Sequence record: OP172796.1
Reading direction: 5' to 3' (one strand)
From: Escherichia phage EF202P1
DNA length: 64,000 nucleotides
Shown: positions 1 through 16,480 of the stretch, in pieces
Position numbering within the stretch: position 1 is the first letter of the stretch
Layout: every line of letters begins with the position of its first letter
The notes under the pieces: generated by a model
Database searches by the model: none
The model's input: the letters and a program-made list of their open reading frames with translations, nothing else
Told to the model about the DNA's origin: nothing
Position numbers and translations under genes: made by a program

Positions 1-50
1 GGGAATGACCTTCCCCACTAAATAAAGTCCTTAAACTAGGAGATTCTAAA

Positions 51-299
51 ATGGCAACTATCCGCGCAACTGTCAATGCTTATGGCTGTTATACTCTGGA
101 CGTTAAATTTGATATTGGTGGAACTGATGAGTGTTTTTCATTAGTGAAGACAGTTATCAAGCAAGTTATCCCAGATTATAACCCTACTGATGACTTCTGG
201 AAAGACGCTGTAAAAGAGGCATTAAACGACGAGCATCACTATCATTACTGGGGTGACTTGATTATCTCACTGTACTACAATAAACAAGGTTACAACTAA
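51..299 (+). CDS. hypothetical protein (82 aa)
   Basis: ORF preceded by AGGAG-like RBS; followed by hairpin terminator at 339-360. Confidence 0.55.
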   Translation: MATIRATVNAYGCYTLDVKFDIGGTDECFSLVKTVIKQVIPDYNPTDDFWKDAVKEALNDEHHYHYWGDLIISLYYNKQGYN

Positions 300-338
300 T
301 CGACGCAACGGGGCTAAATAGCCCCAGATACCTTCACA

Positions 339-360
339 GCCCCATTTAAGGGGCTTTTTT
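339..360 (+). terminator. rho-independent terminator
   Basis: GCCCC-ATTTAA-GGGGC stem-loop followed by T6. Confidence 0.7.
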
Positions 361-809
361 ACGTCTATGTAATAGCCTCTATACAATCCCTTTCCTTTCC
401 TTTCCAGAATCTTACTAGACCTTAAAAGCAATAACTCTATAGCTTACTCTATAACCTTTTATCAAATCAACTTAAATATAAGCCCATAACCCGAAAGGGA
501 AGGGCAACCGTTTAAACGCTCTATAAAGCTCTATAACAGCCTTATCAACCTAACTTAAGGGATTGCATTAACTCACCCTTAAAAGCCCTTTATAAAGCTT
601 CCCAGAGCCTTAAAAGAATCTTATAAGGGTGTAAGCTTTATTATCTCGTTAGTATCTTGTGAACTACTAAAAAGGGGCTTGTTAGTGTCTTAAAAGTATG
701 TTATAGGGGCTATAAAGTTACTTCAAAGTTACGTAAAAGAGGCTATAAAGTTACGTAAATGCTAGCCCCCTTAACATCTTCTTAACAAATTCTTAACAAT
801 CCCTACATA

Positions 810-1720
810 GTTATGCTTGTTAGCAACTTGTTAGCCCCTTGTTAAATCTCTGTTAAAACCACGTAAAAGCCTTGTAAGAGTCTTTGACATAGCCTTTAAA
901 GCTCCTGTAAAGCCTTATAAATAGGTGTCTGTATAGTTGGGGTGTAATTACTAGGAAGAGGCTTAAAAGAGCTTACAAAGAGCTATAGAGAGCTTTTAAA
1001 AGGGCTATTTAAAAGGTCACTAAGAGGGAAAGGGAACGATAAGAAAAGAGATAGTGACCGTGTTAATAGCTTGTTAAAAAGATTAAATACTTGTTAGAGA
1101 CTTGTTAATTATCTTAACAAAATAACTCTTAAAAATTAACTTGTTAGCTCTTGTTAGTCATCTGTTAAGACTCTGTAAAGACCATGTATCGACTGTTAAG
1201 AACTTGTTACAGCCTTGTTAGTTCTGTTAAGAGTCTGTTAAGACCTCTGAAGAGATGTTAAGAGCTTGAGAGAGTTGTTAAGAGATTGTTAATGATATTT
1301 TAAAATTCTGCAAAGGGGATGTTACAGGGATGTTAAGGGCTACCAAGCAGATATACATCCTAATCAGATATTTTTGAGTTCCTTCAAAGACCCTAAAAAA
1401 TGACTTGATAGCTCTATTTTATAAAAATTTTAAAATTCTGAATAATCACCTAGACAGTCTTTTAAAAATACAGGCATAAACAGGCTTATAAGATACCTTG
1501 TTAATACCGTGTTAGACCTTGTGAGATAAGGTCTGTAAAGATATTCCTGTTAAGTTTGTTAAAACAGTCTATATAGAGGCTTAGTAATACCTAGTGAACA
1601 CCTATAGAGTGTCATCTATGTGACATAGAGATTAAGAGGTGTATAGGGGCTTCTAAGAGTGTGTAGAGAGATGGTTAAGGTGATTGTATAGGTTGTTAAG
1701 AAGGCTTGTTAGAAGAGTGT
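810..1720. repeat. array of about 28 degenerate (T)TGTTA(A/G) direct repeats, densest at 1061-1337; candidate iteron/protein-binding array
   Basis: Short motif recurs every 10-20 bp in an ORF-free region (for example ttgttaga, ttgttaat, ctgttaaga, gatgttaaga); also CTATAAAG/GGCTATAAAGTTAC direct repeats at 712-757. Confidence 0.6.
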
Positions 1721-1756
1721 TTAGAAGGGCTATACAGAGGGGCTATTAAGACCACT

Positions 1757-1802
1757 AGATAGATACTAAGATACTATATAGTACTATATAACTATATATA
1801 GA
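1757..1802. repeat. AT-rich ACTATATA/AGATACTA repeat tract (possible DNA unwinding element)
   Basis: agatactaagatactatatagtactatataactatatata lies directly after the repeat array. Confidence 0.45.
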
Positions 1803-1934
1803 GAGTAAGCTTAAGAAGGTTGTTAAGAAGGGTAGATATTTTATTCACATATGATGGTGACCCAGAGGTTGGGACAACCGATAAAATTTTATAAAAATTG
1901 AAAAGCCCCCAATTAAGGAGGCTCTTAAGATATT

Positions 1935-2485
1935 TTAAATCAGTGTTTCCAGAACTGTCTTCAGTGATGACTTGGTTGTTTGATAAAAATGAGTAAATCC
2001 GTTATTGTTATCGAATACCTGCATCATGATATCATCTCCCTTGATTGGATACACTCGGATATCATAGTGAAACCCATTAAATACAGCAGAACCATTACAG
2101 AATGCTCTAAAGTCATCCACTGAGATATACTCTTCATGACCTGTGATTTTTATACAAACACCTTTACTCGGTCTCTTAGGGTTGATATCTTCCATCACAG
2201 ACATACTCTGTCCACCAAGAGAGACCATAGTGACCATTTTACGGTTCTTCTGTCTGAAGTACATCTTAACTTTCTGTAAAGTATCTTCATAGAACGGATA
2301 AGACCTTTCTACAAAGATTCCTTCAAGTGGCTCTTTACCATTTTCAACTTCTCTGTTATGCCGTACTGCAAAGATAATTTGTTGGAACCAGTCAAAATTT
2401 TCTTCGGAGAGTCCTTCCCGAATATCATTCCAGTCAAGGACTAGATAGTTACCTTCAACTTCTTTTAAGTTATCTTTTTTTTCAT
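1935..2485 (-). CDS. hypothetical protein; reading frame interrupted at an A8 run near the start (frameshift or homopolymer length error)
   Basis: ATG at 2485-2483 opens a 6-codon frame (MKKKIT*); the -1 frame is open from there to 1935 with no in-frame ATG/GTG/TTG until 2264; slippery A AAA AAG at 2480-2474. Confidence 0.4.
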
Positions 2486-2498
2486 ATCTATCACACCG

Positions 2499-2963
2499 TT
2501 ATCGTAAAACTTGGTAAGCTGGTACTGCAAACTTGTTGCCGCTGTTCTTAATGAGGTCTTCTTCTGTTACTAAGAATGTAAGACCAAACAAATGTAAATA
2601 GATGCTGTCACACTCAAATATCTTAAATAGGTATTTACCGTCATGATAAACAGACTCTACTACACCTTTTGCAACAACCTCTCCAGTCTTGAAGTCTTTA
2701 AGGCGGTATACATTACCAACTTTAGGGACTGTTTTCATCTCAGGCTCTTTTAGCTTCTCACCAACCTCTACATCACCTAGTAAGTTAGAACTTTCAAAAG
2801 CTATATGGTTCATATAAGCTTCTGAGCATTCCAAGATAAAGCAATGCACAAGAGCCTTAGCAGCATGTCTTGAACAATTCAACTTATCACAAATCTCTTT
2901 GTACATTTTATCTTTAGTTGAATTGTTAAGCATTGCTTTTTGAACTACTACTTTAATTTTCAT
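2499..2963 (-). CDS. hypothetical protein (154 aa)
   Basis: ORF in minus-strand early block; no recognisable motif. Confidence 0.6.
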   Translation of the reverse strand: MKIKVVVQKAMLNNSTKDKMYKEICDKLNCSRHAAKALVHCFILECSEAYMNHIAFESSNLLGDVEVGEKLKEPEMKTVPKVGNVYRLKDFKTGEVVAKGVVESVYHDGKYLFKIFECDSIYLHLFGLTFLVTEEDLIKNSGNKFAVPAYQVLR

Positions 2964-3016
2964 TTCGCTACCTTCTAAGTTCCTACAAAGGGGCTATCAA
3001 GTAACCCCTCAAGTTA

Positions 3017-3241
3017 TTACTCAGACTTTTCAGTCTTCTTATCAGATTTCTTACTAGTCTTCTTCTCAGCTTTCTGCTCAGGTTCCTTCTCAGAAGTTGC
3101 CTTGATAACCATATCGAGAAGCTCTGATAAGTCACTTTTCAGCAAAGTAACAGGCTGCTCATTGTAGAAGTTTTTGTCAAGATAAACTTTGAACTCTTCA
3201 ATAGATGGAAATCCAAAAATTGGTACAGGTGTCTTAATCAT
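3017..3241 (-). CDS. hypothetical protein (74 aa), Lys/Glu-rich C-terminus
   Basis: ORF; C-terminal KAEKKTSKKSDKKTEKSE low-complexity tail. Confidence 0.5.
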   Translation of the reverse strand: MIKTPVPIFGFPSIEEFKVYLDKNFYNEQPVTLLKSDLSELLDMVIKATSEKEPEQKAEKKTSKKSDKKTEKSE

Positions 3242-3317
3242 TATTTAGTTTCTCCATAGGCATCTTTTAAGATTGCCTTGTTAATCATTTCAGCGATTGC
3301 AAAACGAACACATACAG

Positions 3318-14562: not shown

Positions 14563-15120
14563 ATGAGATATTTGAAGTATGCTTCATGGATTTTCTTAGC
14601 TTTGTTAGAGCCATTTGCAGCAATCTTAGCAGTTATCTTAGCACCTTTCGTAGTTCCATTCTACAGTGAGAAGAAAGGACATCTCCCTTTTGGATTCAGA
14701 TGGATGGAGACATATGATAACCCAATTGATGGTGATGAAGGCCACGTTAAAAGATGGGCTAAGATTAGAAAGATTGGTAAGCTTGGTGTCTATATGCAGA
14801 GAGTTGGTTGGCTCTGGAGAAACAAAGCTTATAACTTCTCTTACCATGTGTTAGGAAGAGATGTAAAAGATGTTACTAAGTGGAAAGGCAATATCAATGT
14901 AAGTTCTAACCCTGAAGATAATCAGACAGGTTATCTCCTAATGTGGAACAGTAATGCTTGGGGATTATTCGCTTTTGTACCATCAATTAAAATCTTTGGT
15001 AAACAATTCTACTGGAGAATTTATGTTGGGTGGAAACTTAAAAGTGTTGTCCCAGAAGAAAGAGCATTCTCAAGGGAAAGAGTTATGTTGGCATTCTTTA
15101 TTCATCCACTAAGAAAATAA
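14563..15120 (+). CDS. hypothetical membrane-anchored protein (185 aa) embedded in the tRNA cluster
   Basis: N-terminal hydrophobic stretch WIFLALLEPFAAILAVILAPFVVPF; Trp-rich; AGAGG RBS. Confidence 0.65.
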   Translation: MRYLKYASWIFLALLEPFAAILAVILAPFVVPFYSEKKGHLPFGFRWMETYDNPIDGDEGHVKRWAKIRKIGKLGVYMQRVGWLWRNKAYNFSYHVLGRDVKDVTKWKGNINVSSNPEDNQTGYLLMWNSNAWGLFAFVPSIKIFGKQFYWRIYVGWKLKSVVPEERAFSRERVMLAFFIHPLRK

Positions 15121-15128
15121 AGATTTAA

Positions 15129-15204
15129 AGGGGATTAGTTTACAAGGTTAAAACCTCGGTCTTTGAAATCGAAGAAGTTGGTTCAATTCCAACATCCCCC
15201 GCCA
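15129..15204 (+). tRNA. tRNA-Gln (anticodon TTG)
   Basis: Acceptor AGGGGAT/ATCCCCC, anticodon loop CTTTGAA, T-arm GTTGG-TTCAATT-CCAAC, G73, CCA. Confidence 0.6.
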
Positions 15205-15206
15205 AT

Positions 15207-15285
15207 GCTCCATTACTCCAATTGGCAGAGAGGCCAGACTTAAAATCTGTGTTATGTATCGGTTCGAATCCGATATGGAGTACCA
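15207..15285 (+). tRNA. tRNA with Leu-type anticodon (TAA) but short variable arm
   Basis: Acceptor GCTCCAT/ATGGAGT, anticodon loop CTTAAAA, T-arm ATCGG-TTCGAAT-CCGAT, A73, CCA. Confidence 0.5.
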
Positions 15286-15290
15286 AATTT

Positions 15291-15366
15291 AGCGGTATAG
15301 CATAACTGGCAATGCAGCAGTCTCTGAAGCTGTCTTATTAAGGTTCAAATCCTTATGCCGCTGCCA
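15291..15366 (+). tRNA. tRNA-Gln-like (anticodon CTG; register uncertain)
   Basis: Acceptor AGCGGTA/TGCCGCT, D-arm GCAT-AACTGGCA-ATGC, loop CTCTGAA with wobble-paired stem, T-arm TAAGG-TTCAAAT-CCTTA, G73, CCA. Confidence 0.45.
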
Positions 15367-15397
15367 CTTCTAAGGGTTCTTATGAGAGTCCTTAAAT

Positions 15398-15473
15398 GTG
15401 GCCTTATCATAAAAGGTAATGACCCATGCTGTGAACATGGTCTATACGGGTTCAAATCCCGTAGGTCACCCCA
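15398..15473 (+). tRNA. tRNA-His (anticodon GTG)
   Basis: Acceptor GTGGCCT/AGGTCAC, anticodon arm CCATG-CTGTGAA-CATGG, T-arm ACGGG-TTCAAAT-CCCGT, C73, CCA. Confidence 0.7.
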
Positions 15474-15479
15474 ATTTAT

Positions 15480-15555
15480 AGTCCAAGTAGCTTATATGGT
15501 TAAAGCGCGTGTCTGAAAAACATGAGAAGAGGGTTCAAATCCCACTGGACTACCA
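15480..15555 (+). tRNA. tRNA-Phe (anticodon GAA)
   Basis: Acceptor AGTCCAA/CTGGACT, anticodon loop CTGAAAA, T-loop TTCAAAT, A73, CCA. Confidence 0.6.
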
Positions 15556-15571
15556 ATTTCAAAGGTGCTTA

Positions 15572-16306
15572 ATGAAAGAGATGACAGAACAAGGTAAGGA
15601 GATTTTTAATCTCTTAAAAACCGGTAGAGGGTTTTCTAATCCCCTTATTACTGGTGCAGCAGTTCTAGGTGGAACCGTGGCTGCCTCTACATCACTTGTA
15701 AGCTCTATTAGCTCTGTAACAGACCCTACAATGAAGGATAAGCTCATTGCTGCTGGACTTACAACAGTTCTGCTTAATAGCTTTACAACGAGTCTGACAA
15801 GCACTACATCAACTACTAAGACATTGACAGATTATGGTCAAAAGTCTATTGATGAGTTTTCTTCACGTATGCAGGTAGCAAAAGGCTACTCCAATGTTAT
15901 GGGTGCAGCAGGAGAGCAAGTCGGTTGTACACCATTTAGTGGTATTATGGGTGTTGCTACAGAATATGGTCAAAAAGCTATTGACACAATTAACAGTGCA
16001 CTAGATGGTGTTAATGGTGTATTAAGCGACTTACAAGATGCTATTGACAAAGGTCTTGATACTATTTCTGATTTAGCTAACCAAGCTGTTAGCAAGATTA
16101 ATGAGGGTATCTCAAAGATTACAGCTTATGCAGATGAAGTTGTGCAGATGATTGAAGAAGAAGCTGCCCTTATTGCAGAGTACCTTAAAACGAATATCAA
16201 TGGGTTCTTAGCAGGTATCTTACCAGACTGGTTTGATGATGCTTGTAAAACTGGTGTGATTGACACTATTGCAACACCAGAAATGAAGAACGCATTACAG
16301 AAATAA
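15572..16306 (+). CDS. hypothetical protein (244 aa), Ser/Thr-rich N-terminal region
   Basis: ORF; start moved to ATG 15572 because the longer ORF would overlap tRNA-Phe. Confidence 0.6.
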   Translation: MKEMTEQGKEIFNLLKTGRGFSNPLITGAAVLGGTVAASTSLVSSISSVTDPTMKDKLIAAGLTTVLLNSFTTSLTSTTSTTKTLTDYGQKSIDEFSSRMQVAKGYSNVMGAAGEQVGCTPFSGIMGVATEYGQKAIDTINSALDGVNGVLSDLQDAIDKGLDTISDLANQAVSKINEGISKITAYADEVVQMIEEEAALIAEYLKTNINGFLAGILPDWFDDACKTGVIDTIATPEMKNALQK

Positions 16307-16307
16307 T

Positions 16308-16400
16308 GGAAGATTAACCCTAAAAGGTAAGGGAGCAGTTTGCTAAACTGCCAGTAGCTGAGAAATCGGTGTACCAGTTCAAGTCTGGTATCTTCCTCCA
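16308..16400 (+). tRNA. tRNA-Ser (anticodon GCT), long variable arm
   Basis: Acceptor GGAAGAT/ATCTTCC, anticodon arm GCAGT-TTGCTAA-ACTGC, long variable arm, T-arm ACCAG-TTCAAGT-CTGGT, CCA. Confidence 0.7.
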
Positions 16401-16404
16401 ATTT

Positions 16405-16480
16405 GAATCCGTGACAGAAATGGCTATGTGCCTGTCTGCAAAACAGGTTTATAAGGGTTCGAGTCCCTTCGGATTCTCCA
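16405..16480 (+). tRNA. tRNA-Cys (anticodon GCA)
   Basis: Acceptor GAATCCG/CGGATTC, anticodon arm CCTGT-CTGCAAA-ACAGG, T-loop TTCGAGT, U73, CCA. Confidence 0.7.

Follow-up and report, generated by a model that had tools for sequence, protein, structure and literature searches.

The window analyzed here, the whole 64,000-nucleotide stretch of Escherichia phage EF202P1, probably carries a conserved Felixounavirus gene in a frameshifted form that is real, very recent and strain-specific, and any rescue of the full-length protein would be incidental. By sequence similarity, the window is a genome segment of a Felixounavirus (Felix O1-like myovirus), as a 1.6-kb query around the altered tract matched 211 phage records at 80-97% identity, nearly all of them from Escherichia or Salmonella Felixounavirus. 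Over 25 kb, vB_EcoM-LTH02 was the closest record of the GenBank phage collection, at 97.0%.

On the minus strand, the start codon of the affected gene, a member of the PHROG 4330 family (ATG, 2483 to 2485), is followed by a run of eight A residues (2475 to 2482; T8 on the plus strand) and a G at 2474. Read from this ATG, frame 0 is ATG AAA AAA AAG ATA ACT TAA and gives MKKKIT before the TAA at 2465 to 2467. The -1 frame has no stop between 2498 and the TAA at 1937-1935 (187 codons) and holds the gene body, 179 codons (DNLKEV…ETLI) plus stop, between 1935 and 2474. Its first ATG, GTG or TTG is the ATG at 2262 to 2264, from which a 109-aa C-terminal fragment could be read. The run of eight also places the heptamer A_AAA_AAG (2474 to 2480) in phase with frame 0. 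A preliminary description of this DNA had reported the stop after six codons, the -1 frame open to 1935 with no start codon before 2264, and the identity of the heptamer with the slippery sequence of E. coli dnaX, and translation, ORF listing and codon phase bear out all three.

A Shine-Dalgarno-like sequence, GGTGTGAT (2490 to 2497, minus strand), which we read as the ribosome-binding site of the gene itself, is 4 nt away from the ATG and lies 9-13 nt before the heptamer. The minus-strand junction reads …TAA CGGTGTGATAGAT ATG AAAAAAAA GATAACTTAAAAG…, with the stop codon of the upstream gene 14 nt before the ATG. This upstream gene (2499 to 2963, minus strand; 154 aa, PHROG 4713) is in the same frame as the open frame of the broken gene, with a TAA between them, and it shares that frame because of the two additional bases, as the two genes are in different frames in relatives with A6. 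On the other side, the promoter and terminator scan revealed a terminator-like hairpin with a T-tract (1901 to 1926, minus strand) 9 nt past the stop codon, suggesting that the PHROG 4330 gene is the last of its transcription unit and that a frameshift in it would have no polar effect.

The state of the gene in relatives is what identifies the lesion. The relatives SP22, MBP4696116, CL1 and nataliec have an intact 549-nt (182-aa) CDS annotated from the same ATG, 14 nt past the upstream stop, and the initial Met is conserved in the protein alignment. Where the window has ATG AAAAAAAA GAT, relatives have ATG AAAAAA GAT or ATG GAAAAA GAT, so that ATG AAA AAA GAT is translated straight through, with no slippery heptamer. 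A variable-gap pattern scan found the 6-base tract in all 14 IMG/VR contigs, and a pattern scan found it in six of the six relevant JGI metagenome contigs, two further matches being due to chance; a pattern scan for the tract region had no match in GTDB bacterial genomes. In the GenBank phage collection, a 131-nt query centered on the tract gave 146 matches with megablast and 201 with blastn. Among the matches listed, 111 rows (~96 distinct records) cover the tract, and by span arithmetic all are two bases shorter than the query, except for Salmonella phages D1-2 and NJ12. Three records that seemed off by one in this arithmetic (KEP1, ECML-1 and nataliec) proved to have a normal tract on reading.

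The closest haplotypes came from Logan contigs. All seven contigs whose upstream protein is identical to that of the window have A6 and an intact 182-aa gene, and three of them (L040, L041 and L044) differ from the window over 0.8-1.26 kb by only 1-2 substitutions in addition to the gap of two bases (99.6-99.8% identity), and yet are A6. The 6-base tract with an uninterrupted 182-aa ORF thus extends over ~96 GenBank Felixounavirus records, 20 IMG/VR and metagenome contigs and seven Logan contigs, with three variant records excepted. The A8 allele was found nowhere else in IMG/VR, the JGI metagenomes, GTDB or the GenBank phage collection, where no record exceeded 96.2% identity to the 131-nt query. 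A protein starting with MKKKD, as expected from an in-frame A9 allele, was absent from 61 protein representatives, and an exact protein look-up returned no record of the 109-aa product from the ATG at 2264.

As near-identical relatives have A6, the tract of the window is best read as a very recent +2 expansion of A6, and not as A9 minus one base. The preliminary description had pointed out that one extra A would restore a single ORF, and this arithmetic is correct, but the lost base that it implied is at odds with the A6 of the relatives, against which the lesion is a gain of two. It had also called for a comparison of orthologs, which we carried out: the intact gene body is shared by the relatives, but the two-frame layout is not, as they have a single ORF behind a 6-base tract. 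The feature is an indel in a mononucleotide run, of a length that is not a multiple of three, in a gene that is intact in relatives 99.6-99.8% identical to it. What fits best is an option absent from the preliminary description, namely that a dispensable gene has recently undergone a genuine frameshift mutation.

The disrupted gene encodes a member of a conserved and uncharacterized phage protein family. The reconstructed protein matched PHROG 4330 with E = 1.8e-107 (residues 2-183 against profile positions 19-200 of 200), and the match also spans the 74 residues upstream of the ATG at 2264. Homologs fall into 61 clusters, mostly of 182 aa or longer calls from upstream starts, and are 80-95% identical to the gene body. 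The 179 downstream codons of the window have a single lineage-unique substitution and zero internal stops. In the alignment, homologs begin with M-[E/K]-K and continue with a short segment of varying length, suggesting that one added Lys should be harmless. No significant Pfam family was found for this protein or its neighbor, and Rfam had no match in 1-3300. The AF2 model has a confident fold at residues 80-179, where a Whirly-like C-terminal domain is predicted that may be of the Whirly / MRP / SsgB type; as a structural lead, a Whirly-like fold hints at single-stranded nucleic acid binding.

A 109-aa NCBI protein (P0037) was considered as another 5'-disrupted allele and rejected, as it is a short gene call on an intact gene. 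A complete Felixounavirus-sized contig of 88.4 kb (L032; JBANCJ010000010.1, in GCA_046062545.1) carries an intact copy that is annotated only as a 109-aa fragment. This contig is part of an assembly labelled Methanobrevibacter gottschalkii, presumably because of contamination or mislabelling.

We propose that replication slippage lengthened A6 at codons 2-3 (ATG AAA AAA GAT…) to A8. Most ribosomes starting at 2485 would then read MKKKIT and stop at 2467-2465, and the 182-aa protein would be largely lost. The allele would be tolerated, with the gene last before the terminator and evidently dispensable, as judged from a small number of disrupted alleles that may in part be errors. In this scheme A_AAA_AAG falls in phase by accident of the expansion and would open two routes to rescue: -1 tandem tRNA-Lys slippage from a P site occupied by AAA (2479-2477) and an A site occupied by AAG (2476-2474), or addition of one A to the transcript by RNA polymerase. 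Both routes would lead to the same 183-aa product, MKKK-DNLKEV…, and would represent incidental leakiness instead of an evolved signal.

By analogy with published systems, rescue at a low, incidental level is plausible. Unstimulated A_AAA_AAG shifted >0.1% in an E. coli reporter with a background of 0.055%, and unstimulated heptamers reach ~0.1-0.5% in reporter data (PMC4066793). Much higher values are known from the attB1 sequence of pDEST17, where C-AAA-AAA near the start codon gives 25-60% frameshifting (PMC1851650). The pDEST17 case and the present one both have a run of lysine codons near the start that would let some ribosomes bypass a lesion with no evolved stimulator, but the pDEST17 figure was measured in one context of an overexpression vector and is strongly context-dependent. 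On the transcriptional side, single-A insertions by RNA polymerase rise exponentially with the length of an A/T run, and insertions are the dominant slippage product in such runs (PMC5574713). The human apoB A8 tract, with ~10% corrected product, and bacterial ORFs with runs of 9A or 9T resemble our case in that a sense-strand A run can be restored to frame by one added A (PMC1088944); the difference is that the bacterial threshold is mostly ~9, which makes 8 borderline. The closest concept in the literature is a frameshift indel compensated by low-level frameshifting (PMC5009743). Among its examples are the G-run mutants of HSV thymidine kinase, called "savior indel", in which a homopolymer indel likewise inactivates a viral gene and slippage at the run leaves a trickle of product (PMC5009743). 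There, unlike here, both selection by an antiviral drug and residual activity are documented.

By inference, this is a true change and not a miscall, the phage can dispense with the gene, and any rescue is small. The main alternative to a real mutation, which we consider possible but clearly less likely, is that the true tract is A6 or has another in-frame length and that the consensus was overcalled by two bases. The preliminary description had rated a homopolymer miscall as equally plausible with its other readings; a miscall as such stays in consideration at that lower level, but the form that it had proposed, an A9 read as A8, does not agree with the A6 of the relatives. Several observations are consistent with an overcall. 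The A8 run is the only A/T run of at least 7 in 64 kb, where Markov models of order 1 to 5 predict 8-31, and at each of these orders none of 100 simulations had one or fewer such runs, so the suspect run stands in a genome that otherwise avoids them. The downstream ORF is perfectly intact, the nearest haplotypes differ from the window by essentially these two bases alone, and A8 is present in no other record of the collections searched. As a lone long A/T run with a pristine ORF behind it, the allele equally fits a very young mutation and an artefact.

The quality of the remaining assembly argues against an artefact. An overcall would need +2, where the usual error is ±1, and no other frame-breaking indel was found: against LTH02 (97% identical), the window has 81 indels in 63 kb, and the +2 at 2475 is the only one that breaks a frame. 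All others are intergenic or in the tRNA or repeat regions, come in multiples of three, lie immediately behind a stop codon, or are offset by another indel a few bases away. When three genomes were compared, with D1-2 included, A8 was the only window-specific coding homopolymer indel. We also anchored homopolymers of at least 5 by their flanks across four genomes (the window, LTH02, D1-2 and NJ12). Lineage-unique length changes were no more numerous in the window (2/223, both non-coding, at 669 and 11010) than in LTH02 (0/333), D1-2 (2/377) or NJ12 (1/365), and there is no sign of systematic homopolymer miscalling in the window assembly. Tracts of 7 and 13 in other records also make real length instability plausible. 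A clean assembly with no excess of homopolymer changes favors a real mutation over an artefact.

Long A/T homopolymers are strongly avoided in the window, which has 48 A6/T6 runs and a single run of at least 7, the A8 itself. In 85 kb of LTH02 there are only two T7 runs and a single G7, and D1-2 and NJ12 have a few runs of at least 7 each, among them a run of 13 in D1-2 and a run of 16 near a genome end of NJ12.

Three other records have an altered tract. Salmonella phage D1-2 (MN481367.1) has A7, in which frame 0 ends after 4 codons and a truncated CDS is annotated. Salmonella phage NJ12 (OQ845959.1) has A13 together with two further homopolymer indels within 62 nt of the tract: one base is missing from an A4 run that lies 12 nt downstream, and the upstream gene has C4→C3 in its tail. 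Logan contig L033 (SRR22424541) has GA4 and a second frameshift at the 3' end of the gene. The A7, A13 and GA4 alleles each need a frame shift different from that of A8. D1-2 and NJ12 are 96.4% identical genome-wide and have the local haplotype in common, so their expansions may have one origin, and some of the tract-length and broken variants may be sequencing errors. Taken together, the variants suggest that the PHROG 4330 gene bears disruption and that its A6 tract is a weak spot. Tract lengths of 8 and 13 fit better with stepwise replication slippage than with single-base miscalls.

Annotation masks some of these broken copies, as the upstream gene of NJ12 has been extended through the junction and the downstream CDS is truncated in both NJ12 and D1-2 (L036, locus 800-930; L018, locus 746-780). 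In four sequences from Logan and ENA assemblies (P0036, P0039, P0043 and P0044), an apparent frameshift is at a second run inside the gene, ATAAAAATC, through A5→A4 or A5→A6, and the products read …CIKSQVMKS… or …CIKNHRS*.

The recurrence of length changes in one tract raises a second alternative, a functional one, to which we give little credence: that the tract is a hypermutable contingency switch, or a used site of -1 programmed frameshifting or transcriptional slippage, setting the level of the Whirly-like protein. It would be an improbable extension of this idea that the off or low states (A7, A8 and A13) are selected on some hosts, for example, as an escape from a defense that senses the protein. 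In its most specific and similarly doubtful form, the A-tract at codons 2-3 of this Whirly-like early gene would be a genuine mutational switch in A6-allele Felixounaviruses, repeatedly expanded under selection, with A8 as a "leaky-off" setting because A8 alone puts A_AAA_AAG in phase behind the gene's own Shine-Dalgarno sequence. The run does vary in four records (GA4, A7, A8 and A13), against 0-2 other unique homopolymer changes in each of the GenBank genomes among them, and a tract at codons 2-3 is what bacterial contingency genes have. A8 is also the length at which the best E. coli -1 heptamer appears, with the gene's Shine-Dalgarno sequence 9-13 nt upstream. A precedent for hypermutability inside phage genes is given by the polyG tracts of Campylobacter phages (Sørensen et al. 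2021, Cell Rep 35:109214, as cited in PMC10877375), where, as here, a homopolymer in a phage CDS differs in length among isolates. However, as that work is cited, the polyG tracts are long, are present in all members and switch at high frequency, whereas the present tract is a stable 6-base run, often interrupted by G, with variants in ~3% of records. More than 97% of records have the short 6-base tract, mostly as the interrupted GAAAAA, which is not hypermutable, and GA4, A7, A8 and A13 each occur in a single record. The in-frame expanded allele (A9, MKKKD) was found in none of the 61 protein representatives, D1-2 and NJ12 may share one origin, and some variants may be errors. This variation is not enough to name the locus phase-variable.

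The recoding part of this alternative overlaps with the proposal in the preliminary description of a dnaX-like programmed frameshift, which did not hold up. The likeness to E. coli dnaX consists of the identical heptamer of type X_XXY_YYZ in phase with the ATG at 2485, a Shine-Dalgarno-like sequence 9-13 nt upstream, where the dnaX stimulator has a spacing of 10 nt (PMC1851650), and an enterobacterial host whose sole tRNA-Lys is tRNA-Lys(UUU). However, dnaX also has a stem-loop 5 nt downstream of A_AAA_AAG, and here the 84 nt past the heptamer, where a stimulator would be sought at a spacing of 5-8 nt, contain no stem-loop or pseudoknot that would stand out (-15.5 kcal/mol, z = -0.23 against shuffles). 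The upstream GGTGTGAT might act as a stimulator, for which a spacing of about 10-14 nt would be expected, but it is the ordinary ribosome-binding site of the gene and is present in all relatives. The heptamer is at codons 2-4, its frame-0 product would be only 6 aa, and the two-frame layout is unconserved, as relatives other than D1-2, NJ12 and L033 have a single 182-aa ORF. The string AAAAAAG itself is common, with 22 copies on both strands of the 64-kb window.

The tRNA complement of the phage bears on the same question. A_AAA_AAG is shifty in E. coli because its sole tRNA-Lys pairs weakly with AAG, and an AAG-cognate isoacceptor is expected to hold AAG tightly (PMC5009743). ARAGORN identified such a gene in the window, tRNA-Lys(CUU) (13891 to 13966, plus strand), in addition to tRNA-Lys(UUU) (12301 to 12376, plus strand), so -1 slippage on the heptamer is expected to be reduced (PMC5009743). 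Both genes are part of a cluster of 25 tRNA genes (11178-16480, plus strand) that has both lysine (UUU and CUU) and both glutamine isoacceptors.

For transcriptional slippage, also raised in the preliminary description, only the incidental part stands. Productive slippage usually needs ~9 A/T, with 8 being effective only sometimes or borderline in most bacteria (PMC1088944). A programmed site would combine that length with a conserved split ORF, whereas the run here is 8 in the window and 6 in relatives; low-level rescue of the broken allele by this route may still occur. The sequence comparisons do not support a dnaX-like programmed recoding signal at this site.

The weakest alternative, which we regard as very unlikely, is that the only product of the gene is the 109-aa protein from the ATG at 2264, which is little more than the Whirly-like domain, or a fusion made by readthrough from the upstream gene. 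In its favor, this ATG is the first canonical start in the open frame, the confident domain (model residues 80-179) lies downstream of it, and the annotators of D1-2 called a truncated CDS, but the 74 N-terminal codons are conserved family-wide and within the PHROG profile, and no strong Shine-Dalgarno sequence was seen by eye before 2264. Similarly, the upstream gene and the ORF share one frame with a single TAA between them, but the fusion would be an unnatural 340-aa product, and TAA readthrough in E. coli is very inefficient. Designed stop-codon readthrough from the upstream gene was rejected, as the frames are shared only through the +2 and differ in relatives. A non-canonical start in the open frame was also rejected as the main route, as the stretch from the TAA at 2501-2499 down to the ATG at 2264 has a single near-cognate codon, ATT (2426-2424), with no obvious Shine-Dalgarno sequence.

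As a probable recent two-base expansion, or less likely a miscall, this feature is essentially an ordinary strain-specific homopolymer frameshift allele; only mildly unusual is the recurrent length change in one tract (A7, A8, A13 and GA4). Annotators should describe the locus as a conserved 182-aa gene that is frameshifted in this copy, and not as a programmed frameshift, and should not read the 109-aa ORF from the ATG at 2264 as a native protein. The case also illustrates how a homopolymer indel can create a textbook slippery heptamer by chance, so that programmed and accidental cases have to be told apart by comparing orthologs. A real allele would make the strain a natural near-knockout of an uncharacterized Whirly-like phage protein, which could help in finding its function.

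Two neighboring regions have features of their own. Just upstream of the PHROG 4713 gene, a 142-aa gene is present in SP22 and in the near-identical Logan contigs and absent in the window, MBP4696116 and CL1; this polymorphism corresponds to 2964-3016 in the window, 839-1267 in L001 and 1083-1511 in L039-L044. On the other side, just downstream of the terminator of the PHROG 4330 gene, ~1.5 kb (431-1935) are free of ORFs of at least 40 aa and dense in the motif CTTGTTAA / CTTGTTAG. Of its 22 matches in the window, against 9.3 expected per 64 kb, 12 fall within ~1 kb, being densest at 678-1712. Copies are often 11 nt apart, and reverse complements of the TTAACAA type at 767-811 form inverted repeats with blocks at ~1181-1340. 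The region has no Rfam match and is the most indel-rich stretch of the LTH02 alignment. From its sequence, it looks like a putative iteron or protein-binding array, in an origin or regulatory region.
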